Positions 58,482 to 61,513 of a stretch of 64,000 bases of DNA are shown here, one piece after another. Below the pieces are notes generated by a model. That model saw nothing but the letters and a program-made list of their open reading frames with translations, made no database searches and was not told the DNA's origin. The DNA is taken from positions 119,101 to 183,100 of IMG/VR virus record IMGVR_UViG_3300023223_000669; one strand, given 5' to 3'. The translations under genes were made by a program, and so were the position numbers. Numbering within the stretch: position 1 is the stretch's first letter; each line of letters begins with the position of its first letter. Origin of the DNA: a virus.

Positions 58482-59267
58482 TTAGTTCGACATTGGGTTG
58501 TTCTGTAGGCATTCTAGCAATCCTTGTTGCCGTAGTAGGTTACGCATGAAATCGCGAAGTTCATCAATTGTACCTTCGTTAGAGTAGAAAACATCAAACG
58601 TTACATCATCCAGGATGGTTTCGCTCGTATGGTTGTCCATGAGTCCGGTGTCGCGTGTAATGCGAACCACGAGGCCATTCTGTTCCTCGGTGATTCTCTT
58701 TTCATTGGGGAAGCGACAGTCAGTGATCAACACTACATCATACTCGCTCCAATCACGACGGAAGGGCGAGTTAGCCCATATGTCTTGTTCAAACATTTCG
58801 CGGAAAATATCTGTCCCCATGACTTGCAGGACTTCTCGAATTGTCATGGGACCAGAACGAAGCATGGGTACCATGTGTTGTCCCATAAGAGGATCTAATG
58901 ACACACTTTCTTCCCGTTTTTCTATCGAATATTTAAAGCGAATCTCTTCTGGAAAGTTATCCCATATAATATGGGTCAGTGTCTCTTTGTCCTCGTTAGA
59001 TCCATACACGAGGTCTCTATCGAGACCGAGTACGTCGATTGCTATGTTTTTGAGGACTTCTGCAAATGCAGTTACACCAACTCTCTTGCCGGCTGTTTGC
59101 AGCATGTCTATAGCCATACCCGCAGCGGTGTCTTTCCCGGTTTGCTTCTTACCAGATAGTGAGATGAAAACAGGATGGGGGTGTTGATTTGGCTGGTCAA
59201 CCATACCTACATTATACGTTCCCGTTGCCGATTTGTCAACGGAAACGTAGGAAAAGTTATCCTTCAT
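58482..59267 (-). CDS. Deoxynucleoside monophosphate kinase
   Basis: SGKKQTGKDT; FAEVLK; REVLQVMGTD; ITDCRFPNE; H.SE. Confidence 0.88.
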   Translation of the reverse strand: MKDNFSYVSVDKSATGTYNVGMVDQPNQHPHPVFISLSGKKQTGKDTAAGMAIDMLQTAGKRVGVTAFAEVLKNIAIDVLGLDRDLVYGSNEDKETLTHIIWDNFPEEIRFKYSIEKREESVSLDPLMGQHMVPMLRSGPMTIREVLQVMGTDIFREMFEQDIWANSPFRRDWSEYDVVLITDCRFPNEKRITEEQNGLVVRITRDTGLMDNHTSETILDDVTFDVFYSNEGTIDELRDFMRNLLRQQGLLECLQNNPMSN

Positions 59268-59317
59268 GGGGAACTCTCAGAAAATGCTACGAGCGTGGGG
59301 ATGCCCTATAGGAAGAT

Positions 59318-60307
59318 TTAGTAGTCGGCTAAAATAGCCTTAACAATTTCAATTCCCTCACAAATGGTAGGAACTACGAATCCACTACATTCGCGAATCA
59401 TAGCATGATTATGCTGATTACCAATAGGCGGAGGAGGTTCTTGATAAACTACAATAGCACCAGGATTATACGTTGCACGGAATCGCTCATAGATTTCTGC
59501 TTGTTGCTGGCTCTCTTTTTTTGTTTTTAGAGCAAAGCCGCGTTTACCTTTTTGATGATTTCTGCCACGTCCTTTGGTTGCTCGTGCCATTTCAATGACA
59601 GTCGCGGCCCTTGATTGTTTTTCGATCAATCGCGGCCAAATGTCTCGTAGAATAGATGCAGCTTCTTGACCAGCCGCTTGCCAAATGTGTCGCGTTTTGT
59701 TTACACGTTTATCAAACGTTGACATCACGGCACCTAAGTTACTTACTTCTGCAAGACGATCGATTACTGCTTTGCAGTTCATTTCAACTCGAACCTGAGG
59801 TTTGTATGTATAGTTTCCAGATTTGAGTTTATTTTTTTTAATATCTATATGACCTTCGCCATCGACAATTCCAGCGAACCATCCCCTTTCTTCAAAAGGG
59901 ATGACCGGCCAAGATTCTTCTTCCATCACCAACACAATTGGGCGTCGTTTGCTATCAGCCCAGGCAATTTCCATAATGGTTCCTATGGAGAGTTTCTTTG
60001 CTCCCAATAGGTTTACGAAAAGGACGGTACAATTCATGCAATCAAATCGATCTCGTGTTGTGATGCCACGTTGGTTACTCATGGCTTTGACATAAGATGC
60101 GATATCCTCTTGCGTCTCTGTCGCTGGGGATGCCTGATCGATCCTATCGCCTTGCATTTCTCGAATATATACCTTGTTCCTAATAGGCGATAAAGCCCTG
60201 ATGCCGACCTCGCGAAGCTCTATCGTAACTTTATCACGCCACGATGTAGCCTCACTATATGTGAGCCCGCTGATCGTTCCTGCTAGGTAGACTGTCTTAT
60301 GTACCAT
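59318..60307 (-). CDS. Nucleoside 2-deoxyribosyltransferase-like protein carrying an in-frame LAGLIDADG insertion
   Basis: VYLAG.I; RD..C; SIGTIMEIAWA; C-terminal GNQHNHAMIRECSGFVV resumes after the insert. Confidence 0.8.
   Translation of the reverse strand: MVHKTVYLAGTISGLTYSEATSWRDKVTIELREVGIRALSPIRNKVYIREMQGDRIDQASPATETQEDIASYVKAMSNQRGITTRDRFDCMNCTVLFVNLLGAKKLSIGTIMEIAWADSKRRPIVLVMEEESWPVIPFEERGWFAGIVDGEGHIDIKKNKLKSGNYTYKPQVRVEMNCKAVIDRLAEVSNLGAVMSTFDKRVNKTRHIWQAAGQEAASILRDIWPRLIEKQSRAATVIEMARATKGRGRNHQKGKRGFALKTKKESQQQAEIYERFRATYNPGAIVVYQEPPPPIGNQHNHAMIRECSGFVVPTICEGIEIVKAILADY
59423..59914 (-). mobile_element. In-frame single-motif LAGLIDADG homing endonuclease insertion (codons 132-295)
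   Basis: GWFAGIVDGEG motif; no intein C-terminal HN or +1 C/S/T. Confidence 0.75.
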
Positions 60308-61513
60308 TCAGGCGACCTCCACGGTAGCCTCGTCCTTCACTTGCTGTAAAACAAGTTTCCAAATCTTATCTTCAATGTCTTTGTTATCGAGTAGTGCGAA
60401 CACGAAACCGCATTCAGTATTCTCAACGTATTCTTGTACCCAAAGTGCATATGCTTTTCGCGGTTGGTTTTCACCAACCACATGCTTCATTGTATTGAGA
60501 CTGCCGTATGCTCTTGCGTAGAGATTATCGTACATGCCCTGTACGTGAGCACGTACATCATCAAAATCGCAGGCTATTGCCTTCGGAAGTTGCTTCACCG
60601 TGGCCCCGTATTCTGAGCCACGAATCAACTCTACCACGCCCTTCGGGCTTAGATAATTGAGGAGCCTGTGAATCCTAAGGTACGTTGGGCTCTTAATCTT
60701 CACTCGTAGGCCGCTTTCGAAACGAGCTACATATCCCTCGCTGTTCTCATCGAACGGAATCTCGCCGCGTAGATCAATATCATATCTACGAGGACGGCGG
60801 AACCCACAAAGCTCTGCAATTTGATCTACGCGGCGAGGGTGCCACTCAACTCCGTTGTGATCGAAAATCGCCAGCAATACCAAGAATGTCTCACCTTTGT
60901 AGTCAACTACAATGCGATTTTCGGGGTAGATGATTTCGAAGACCGGAGTGCAGTCCAGCGGCAGAGCCGCTAGATTGTAACGCTTATCGACCCAGAACAA
61001 TGGATCGAGTTCCTCGGATCCGGCCGTATAGATGGTTTCGTTTAGGATACGAGTGCCCTCAAGAGCCTGATCTGATTCCATACTACCCGGCGTAGCTAGA
61101 CGCCATTCATATCGACATGGATCGATTGGCCCAGCGTTGAAGACCGCTTCAACTACTGAATCATCATGTTCGATTCTACCTTGTGGCTCTAGACATACGA
61201 GTTTTCTGTAACCGATACCACACGAGCCATCCATCTTTTCAAAGACCTCGACGCCCTCCGACCACGGTAGGGCGTCGGGCATAGTCTCCGCACGTTCGTT
61301 CAAGTTGAAGAACTTGGGGAACGGGCGAGCTACGACAGTACCGTCCGCAGCAAAAATAATCCCGCGAGCCAGTCGGTTCACGTCATTCCACTCATCTTTG
61401 ATGTGAGTGTCCTGAGTATATTTGAAGATAGTAAGCGACCCCGACTGGCTCGCAAGCACGCGGCCAGCTTCTACCTCTTTCCAAAGTTTGTTAAGTAGAA
61501 TTGGGTCCTTCAT
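60308..61513 (-). CDS. T4 Rnl1-like RNA ligase
   Basis: FKY; ARGIIF; RPFPKFFN; EKMDGS; FEIIYP.NRIVVDY; EGYV; KIKS..Y. Confidence 0.88.
   Translation of the reverse strand: MKDPILLNKLWKEVEAGRVLASQSGSLTIFKYTQDTHIKDEWNDVNRLARGIIFAADGTVVARPFPKFFNLNERAETMPDALPWSEGVEVFEKMDGSCGIGYRKLVCLEPQGRIEHDDSVVEAVFNAGPIDPCRYEWRLATPGSMESDQALEGTRILNETIYTAGSEELDPLFWVDKRYNLAALPLDCTPVFEIIYPENRIVVDYKGETFLVLLAIFDHNGVEWHPRRVDQIAELCGFRRPRRYDIDLRGEIPFDENSEGYVARFESGLRVKIKSPTYLRIHRLLNYLSPKGVVELIRGSEYGATVKQLPKAIACDFDDVRAHVQGMYDNLYARAYGSLNTMKHVVGENQPRKAYALWVQEYVENTECGFVFALLDNKDIEDKIWKLVLQQVKDEATVEVA

Follow-up and report, generated by a model that had tools for sequence, protein, structure and literature searches.

How can a homing endonuclease persist within the gene of an enzyme when nothing appears to remove it from the gene product? 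In the textbook view, an intragenic homing endonuclease persists by means of a self-splicing intron or an intein, or more rarely through splitting of the host gene. The question is raised here by a single open reading frame (ORF) of a virus, IMG/VR record IMGVR_UViG_3300023223_000669, which is complete at 183,100 bp with direct terminal repeats. The window analysed here is the last 64 kb of this record (64,000 nucleotides, positions 119,101 to 183,100), and coordinates below are those of the window unless stated otherwise. The ORF (59318..60307, minus strand; 329 codons and a stop) encodes a 329-aa protein in which a LAGLIDADG endonuclease domain interrupts, in frame, an enzyme of the nucleoside 2-deoxyribosyltransferase (NDT) fold. 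Sequence comparison and structure modelling make it likely that this insert is an unspliced domain, translated as part of a fusion protein. The insertion is probably mobile or was once mobile, and the prospects that it still moves seem evenly balanced.

Architecture of the fusion protein

A first-pass annotation of the window had placed a LAGLIDADG insert in frame after codon 131, with the host fold resuming behind it. This is upheld, to within about one codon, by alignment to insert-less homologues from Bradyrhizobium phage BDU-MI-1 (155 aa), Tunturiibacter phage Tunturi_5 and many metagenomic alleles. The insert comprises residues 132-295 (164 aa, 492 nt; 59423..59914, minus strand), sits between E131 and G296 ('VLVMEEE' / 'GNQHNHAM') and consists of a complete single-motif I-CreI-type LAGLIDADG domain with short linkers. 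Removing it leaves, as had also been stated, an enzyme of normal size, with 165 aa in a family that usually measures 146-175 aa.

The interrupted enzyme is most likely a member of the NDT superfamily, either a nucleotide N-glycosidase or a deoxyribosyltransferase. The N-terminal part (residues 1-131; 59915..60307, minus strand) is assigned to this fold by Pfam matches, invariant columns and structural similarity. The C-terminal part (residues 296-329; 59321..59422, minus strand) carries a conserved N-x-H-x-H motif and is 73% identical to its counterpart in the insert-less protein P0176 (P and L numbers are our handles for proteins and loci). Nuc_deoxyrib_tr and Nuc_deoxyri_tr2 match residues 4-131. 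With 25.3-25.6 bits against Pfam gathering cut-offs of 28.8 and 30 (PF05014 / PF15891), the window protein scores just below threshold because the insert splits the domain; both families are present in the insert-less relatives. The presumed catalytic residue E113 aligns with the Glu segment of BlsM and MilB ('GT.xEiaWA'). Across ten aligned fusion proteins, the set over which invariance was scored throughout, residues Y7, R85, D86, S107, G109, E113 and H301 are invariant and H299 is nearly so.

An AlphaFold2 model of the fusion, built on an alignment of 144 sequences, reaches a mean predicted local distance difference test score (pLDDT) of 91.4 and a predicted template modelling score (pTM) of 0.80. 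Such a model had been proposed in the first-pass annotation, and it contains two complete domains with the host fold closed. The host parts match flavodoxin-like proteins of the NDT fold, with Z scores of 14.9 (7m5h), 14.2 (7o62), 13.7 (6qai), 13.4 (MilB, 4ohr) and 11.2 (RCL, 2khz). Since these NDT, MilB and RCL superpositions (Z 11-15) run from model residue 1-4 to residue 324-329, the C-terminal 34 residues complete the host fold.

It is hardly credible that the insertion has merely disrupted a dispensable host gene, with an open frame at the 3' junction that means nothing for the enzyme. The Pfam scores just under the gathering thresholds and the long branches of some fusion alleles would agree with gene decay. 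Against this stand the high confidence with which the model closes the host fold, the conserved residues kept in the 34-residue C-terminal segment, the intact frame in all twelve members of the family described below, and the status of the fusion gene as the sole NDT gene in the complete 183-kb genome.

Within the insert, LAGLIDADG_1 matches residues 145-192 (Pfam, E 0.005, sub-threshold) and PHROG 5046 matches residues 140-260. The LAGLIDADG motif, GWFAGIVDGEG (residues 142-152; 59852..59884, minus strand), has the acidic E151 at the catalytic position; W143, A145, G150 and G152 are invariant, and D149 and E151 nearly invariant. Also invariant in the family, as part of 'LIxK', is K230 in 'PRLIEKQ' (codon at 59618..59620, minus strand), which we take to be the counterpart of Lys98 of I-CreI. 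The modelled secondary structure of the insert follows the order helix 138-151, strands 152-160 and 166-176, helix 179-189, strands 193-199 and 204-212, and helix 214-226. Model residues 133-287 superpose on I-CvuI, I-MsoI and I-CreI (Z 14-15), the best match being I-CvuI (Z 15.2, root-mean-square deviation 3.1, 131 residues aligned, model residues 133-284), and Foldseek gives a template modelling (TM) score of 0.70-0.75 between the insert and I-CreI. These three enzymes resemble the insert in fold, in size and in their single LAGLIDADG motif with an acidic catalytic residue; identity is only about 14-17%, and they are free proteins from group I introns of rRNA genes, whereas the window domain has no recognisable intron and is embedded in a host polypeptide. 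Outside the I-CreI-like fold the insert has linkers of about 6 residues at its N-terminal and about 17 residues at its C-terminal end.

The loop that receives the insert lies on the surface of the host domain, about 15 residues past the catalytic Glu; it comes immediately behind the next strand and right before the NxHxH motif. Its length varies in empty alleles from 0 to 19 extra residues. Because the loop is variable in length and conserved motifs flank it, the insertion site is structurally permissive and adjoins conserved DNA, and a permissive loop beside conserved DNA is what a homing endonuclease requires. Several insert-less alleles (L004:2622-3101 / L094, P0023, P0024 and L150) carry 9-19 extra residues in exactly this loop (e.g. 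'NPVSGEERQIGSLTD'). These residues may reflect the permissive nature of the loop or, alternatively, may be footprints of imprecise loss.

Search for splicing elements

According to the first-pass annotation, the insert lacked both the junction residues of an intein (a C-terminal His-Asn and a +1 Cys, Ser or Thr) and a visible group I intron core, and direct searches bear this out. Hint and intein families gave no match at E <= 1 in the window protein, in which the insert ends ...PPPI and the +1 residue is Gly. Across the family, inserts start with S, V, L, G, E, T, I, Q or P, none ends in His-Asn, and the +1 residue is G, S or N. Covariance searches against Rfam in permissive mode returned no group I or group II intron match at E <= 10 in 58500-61500 or in positions 2300-3900 of L008, the two family loci that were compared at the DNA level. 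The leftover of some 6 + 17 residues is far below the size of a splicing domain, and the 18 + 51 nt outside the fold-coding part are insufficient for a ribozyme beyond the coding sequence. Among the 12 family members, nothing conserved was found at the junctions that could serve protein or RNA splicing.

A degenerate or unrecognised intron, self-splicing or host-assisted, might nevertheless encode the endonuclease along its whole length and give a mature mRNA for the 165-aa enzyme. Such an intron would be in keeping with the insert's nearest structural relatives, which are intron-borne I-CreI-type enzymes, and with two RNA features noted in the first pass. The 10-bp hairpin just inside the 5' junction (59880..59903, minus strand) is real and stable (dG -19.1, z -2.9), and UCUUGG and UCAAGA can indeed pair from end to end over 6 bp. 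That pairing is, however, a 6-bp match such as chance would give, and it has no counterpart in L008; the hairpin is not evident in L008 either, and is possibly without function. Taken as a whole, the insert RNA shows no unusual degree of structure (z -1.48), and conservation is lowest at the ends, which differ in length and are where a ribozyme core or splice-site helices would be expected. An intron would moreover give no reason for an in-frame, stop-free 3' junction in twelve lineages. Together with the lack of Rfam matches at either locus, these observations make cryptic splicing highly improbable.

Excision at the protein level, with the endonuclease released or the host enzyme religated by a non-canonical or proteolytic route, is extremely improbable. 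The insert of the window begins with Ser132, and its Pro-rich linkers could be accessible to proteases. The Pro-rich ends had been singled out before and do exist; they are variable linkers, in which P291 is the sole Pro that is invariant across the family. Excision is further opposed by the absence of a Hint fold or intein blocks, by the mere 23 or so residues beyond the endonuclease fold, and by the lack of conservation of the first and last insert residues and of the +1 residue.

A hidden ORF in another frame, as in the ShiLan domain discussed below, was rejected as a candidate, the other five frames of the insert carrying 5-11 stops each.

A family of insertions in one host loop

The architecture of the window protein recurs in 11 further sequences (P0003, P0027, P0028, P0031, P0034, P0070, P0089, P0122, P0296, P0297 and L008), which were recovered by an exhaustive HMMER search in which the insert was the only query, and by word-indexed searches that used either the entire protein or a profile; the L008 fusion (L008:2662-3618) came from the scan of viral contigs. 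All members (12/12) carry the endonuclease in the same loop of the host, and in none is the reading frame broken at either junction. The first-pass annotation had looked ahead to other insertions with the same ends: the 11 share the loop, and the end residues themselves are not conserved. Inserts measure 155-175 aa, with linkers that vary in length and sequence, and mean identity within the family is about 32% for the endonuclease parts and about 39% for the host parts. That the frame, the C-terminal host segment and the nuclease residues have been kept at such divergence points to selection on a translated two-domain protein, and would not be predicted for an excised intron. Two options had been offered for the window, a splicing-free domain insertion and an unknown excision mechanism. 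The former is favoured by the twelve frames kept, the unconserved junctions, the I-CreI-like fold that fills the insert and the invariant active-site residues of the host; the latter is not.

Three kinds of related protein were seen alongside the family. P0029 (205 aa) and P0032 (206 aa) start at the host 'ME' before the junction and comprise only the endonuclease and the C-terminal host segment; they could be split genes, products of internal starts or truncations at contig ends. In P0011 (300 aa), another NDT homologue of this family, the enzyme is preceded by an N-terminal domain of Endonuclease_7/HNH type that is fused to it in frame; here a different nuclease accompanies the same host gene. 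The insert-less alleles P0008 (317 aa) and P0009 (309 aa), which are the closest host relatives of the fusion P0003, bear an N-terminal extension of about 160 residues without Pfam annotation.

Distribution, phylogeny and possible mobility

Insertion-less alleles, which the first-pass annotation had thought worth finding, proved to be abundant, with more than 330 at E <= 1e-8. The insert is absent from all 80 of the best metagenome loci (80/80), and a scan of bacterial genomes and metagenome-assembled genomes (MAGs) returned no NDT fusions. The host part of each fusion is nearer to insert-less alleles than to any other fusion: that of the window is 68% identical to P0176 and at most 45% identical to any other fusion, and that of L008 is 76% identical to BDU-MI-1. 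The fusion alleles lie scattered over the host tree, where the insert requires 7-8 state changes, and monophyly of the fusion alleles is rejected (approximately unbiased (AU) test: delta lnL 169, p 3e-6). Among 97 relatives, the endonucleases borne by NDT genes group in a pure clade (Shimodaira-Hasegawa-like support 94) with one exception out of 14, the long-branch P0122. The host and endonuclease topologies of the twelve conflict (p-AU 0.001 and 0.0005); when three rows with long branches are left out, rejection of the endonuclease tree by the host data persists (0.0003), and the reverse test is marginal (0.059). Two syntenic pairs exist with and without the insert at an identical position, namely the window and contig L089 (RNA ligase 68%, deoxynucleoside monophosphate (dNMP) kinase 50%) and L008 and BDU-MI-1 (neighbours 80-82%). 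As far as sequences can tell, this pattern of presence and absence is the one that site-specific mobile elements classically leave, and it is from this distribution and the incongruence of the trees that we infer homing.

A single ancient entry may be considered instead, after which the domain lost its mobility and stayed on, either as a passenger that does no harm or as a module that binds DNA for the host enzyme or the phage, the patchiness being due to repeated precise loss or to allele replacement by recombination. The endonuclease parts are old and more diverged than the host parts, and no recent transfer was seen. Once the long branches are removed, the endonuclease data no longer significantly reject the host topology (p 0.059), and the published methylase case described below appeared to be vertically inherited (PMC9957025). 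A fossil would on the other hand have no need of the acidic motif residues and the invariant Lys, which are retained in all members. Very few of the alleles are fusions, each of them nested among alleles without the insert, and the host data strongly reject the endonuclease topology. We therefore regard domestication as unlikely, if the most serious of the alternatives.

Several further points weigh against a mobile, unspliced insert. No near-identical endonucleases were found in divergent hosts, and the endonuclease parts diverge more (mean 32% identity) than the host parts (39%), which gives no sign of recent homing and would also fit an ancient insertion followed by many precise losses. No convincing pseudo-palindromic target was found at the empty site in the joined host parts of the window and nine insert-less loci, the best candidates matching at 5-7 of 9 arm positions with scattered centres, which is not beyond what many windows yield. 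Several fusion alleles lie on long branches of the host tree, perhaps because the host enzyme is under relaxed constraint, perhaps just because sampling is sparse. Judged by sequence alone, an unrecognised splicing or processing mechanism remains conceivable. Finally, the insert (0.299) and the 34-codon 3' segment of the host gene (0.294) have a lower G+C content at third codon positions (GC3) than the 5' host segment (0.466) and the neighbouring genes (0.47-0.54). The low values over 59321-59914 (minus strand) may mark a co-conversion tract from a donor of lower GC, which is suggestive only: the insert lies no lower than the 6th percentile, and 6% of same-size windows in this mosaic genome are equally low.

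Related insertions in other enzymes

In viral contigs, the relatives of the insert are for the most part free-standing ORFs, 150-200 aa long. All of the long ORFs checked are N6_N4 DNA methylases (PF01555) that are split in frame by the endonuclease, without a Hint match. They come from 7 loci of viruses, 10 proteins of metagenomes and 6 loci of bacteria or MAGs; the bacterial genomes include Streptomyces and Hydrogenophaga, and the inserts occupy at least three positions of the methylase profile (about 65, 125 and 180). Methylase-borne relatives were noted at loci L012, L018, L022, L033, L045, L051 and L065, and L173, L174, L175, L179, L188 and L191, and in proteins P0041, P0051, P0052, P0054, P0059, P0080, P0102, P0116, P0144, P0163, P0065 and P0097. 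A dCTP deaminase (PF22769) of an uncultured Gemmataceae MAG also contains an in-frame LAGLIDADG domain (L208:2039-3199, plus strand), situated before profile position 39 and without an intein match. These inserts resemble that of the window in belonging to the same broad single-motif LAGLIDADG group, in being in frame without a Hint match and in splitting the host domain in two; they differ from it in host gene and insertion site. A match in Xylella phage Bacata was rejected as an insertion, as it is a free-standing endonuclease between kinase and topoisomerase genes.

Genomic setting

The ATG of the fusion ORF directly abuts the TGA of the upstream RNA-ligase gene (60308..61513; PHROG 562), and the fusion ORF is followed by a dNMP kinase gene (58482..59267; PHROG 139). 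The insert-less homologue of BDU-MI-1 likewise adjoins a dNMP kinase gene. A search for an internal promoter or terminator that might serve separate expression of the endonuclease found nothing above background. A perfect sigma-70 consensus (TTGACA, 17 nt, TATAAT; 12/12) lies at 59211-59239 (minus strand), within the first codons of the kinase ORF, whose PHROG match begins only at residue 21. Because of this late beginning, the true start of the kinase is probably a Met near 59207, with its own promoter just past the fusion gene. Elsewhere in the same genome and outside the window, a 185-aa open frame has a second, weak LAGLIDADG_1 match (E 4.6e-4; G000:C1:86303-86497, plus strand) and is apparently free-standing.

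Comparison with known systems

The closest precedent is found in actinophages. Gosselin et al. (2023) described a LAGLIDADG domain in nine F-cluster actinophage methylases (the Taj_79 group), which lies outside the intein, is modelled by AlphaFold as a separate domain and was considered a possible independent selfish element, without evidence of transfer (PMC9957025). For the Taj_79-type domain, neither intein nor intron was detectable (PMC11855218). The Taj_79 group and the window have in common an in-frame LAGLIDADG domain in a phage enzyme, no intein splicing domain or intron, a predicted separate domain and an intact host fold, and both are known from sequence and predicted structure. They differ in host, which is a methylase in the former and an NDT-fold enzyme in the latter, and in distribution, as the Taj_79 case looked vertical in one clade whereas the window insert is patchy over a large allele tree. 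The endonucleases are too dissimilar for a tblastn search with the window protein to have retrieved the actinophage methylases, and tblastn of the methylase-borne P0065 against the phage collection at 1e-10 likewise gave no match and hence no tie to the Taj_79 group. The unprecedented status implied for the window by the first-pass annotation is accordingly too strong, lone in-frame LAGLIDADG domains in phage methylases being already on record (PMC9957025) and many more having been found here; the methylase fusions are far broader than the nine published actinophage cases.

The ShiLan domain of actinophage methylases (Arsenault et al., 2025, PMC11855218) is similarly in frame and stop-free, associated with neither intein nor intron, disjunct in distribution and proposed to stay in the protein. 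In ShiLan, however, the in-frame reading is a featureless loop and an HNH endonuclease is hidden in another frame, whereas the window endonuclease is itself in frame and the other frames are closed. LAGLIDADG inteins such as PI-SceI and PI-PfuI also place an endonuclease in frame within a host protein, beside conserved active-site motifs; in contrast to these, the window insert has no Hint domain, no conserved junction nucleophiles or His-Asn, and one LAGLIDADG motif instead of two. A literature search found no paper that ties homing endonucleases to NDT-family genes. Because a lone LAGLIDADG domain in actinophage methylases had already been described (PMC9957025), the NDT case adds a new host family to a kind of element that has rarely been documented and was noticed once in the literature, and does so with better evidence of mobility; it is not categorically new.

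Proposed mode of persistence and its implications

In the mechanism that we propose, a complete gene for a homodimer-type, I-CreI-like endonuclease has become inserted in frame in a length-variable surface loop of an NDT-fold enzyme, and the insert would never be removed. The mRNA would be read through both junctions to yield a two-domain protein of 329 aa and about 38 kDa, in which the host fold is predicted to close round the insertion, so that the endonuclease hangs on two flexible linkers and the host domain can fold and work. Expression of the endonuclease would depend on the transcription and translation signals of the host gene. The single-motif domain would pair with that of a second subunit to form an active nuclease, possibly aided by the oligomeric state of the host, NDT-fold enzymes being oligomers. 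In co-infecting phages, alleles that lack the insert would be cut by this nuclease at the conserved coding site VME|GN.H.H, and recombinational repair of the cut empty allele would copy the insert in, which amounts to homing.

Taken with the insertions in other enzymes, this leads us to suggest, tentatively and as a reading that may well prove too broad, that an I-CreI-like clade has adopted a third intragenic lifestyle besides introns and inteins. Its members would reside in frame, never removed, in permissive loops that adjoin conserved motifs in oligomeric enzymes of phages (NDT-fold enzymes, N6/N4 methylases and dCTP deaminase), borrowing the expression and perhaps the oligomerisation of the host while still homing. 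If this is true, the window protein would be a naturally bifunctional fusion of an enzyme and a meganuclease.

The NDT family provides a second, unrelated host enzyme that is suited to testing, being a small single domain of 165 aa with hundreds of empty alleles, a dozen scattered occupied ones, conserved nuclease residues and two syntenic pairs. The split host domain of this protein is scored too low by gene callers and by Pfam. Should the fusion prove to be stable and doubly active, splicing would be no prerequisite for intragenic homing, and natural meganuclease domains would be tolerated inside other folds, which would be of relevance to both protein engineering and genome annotation.

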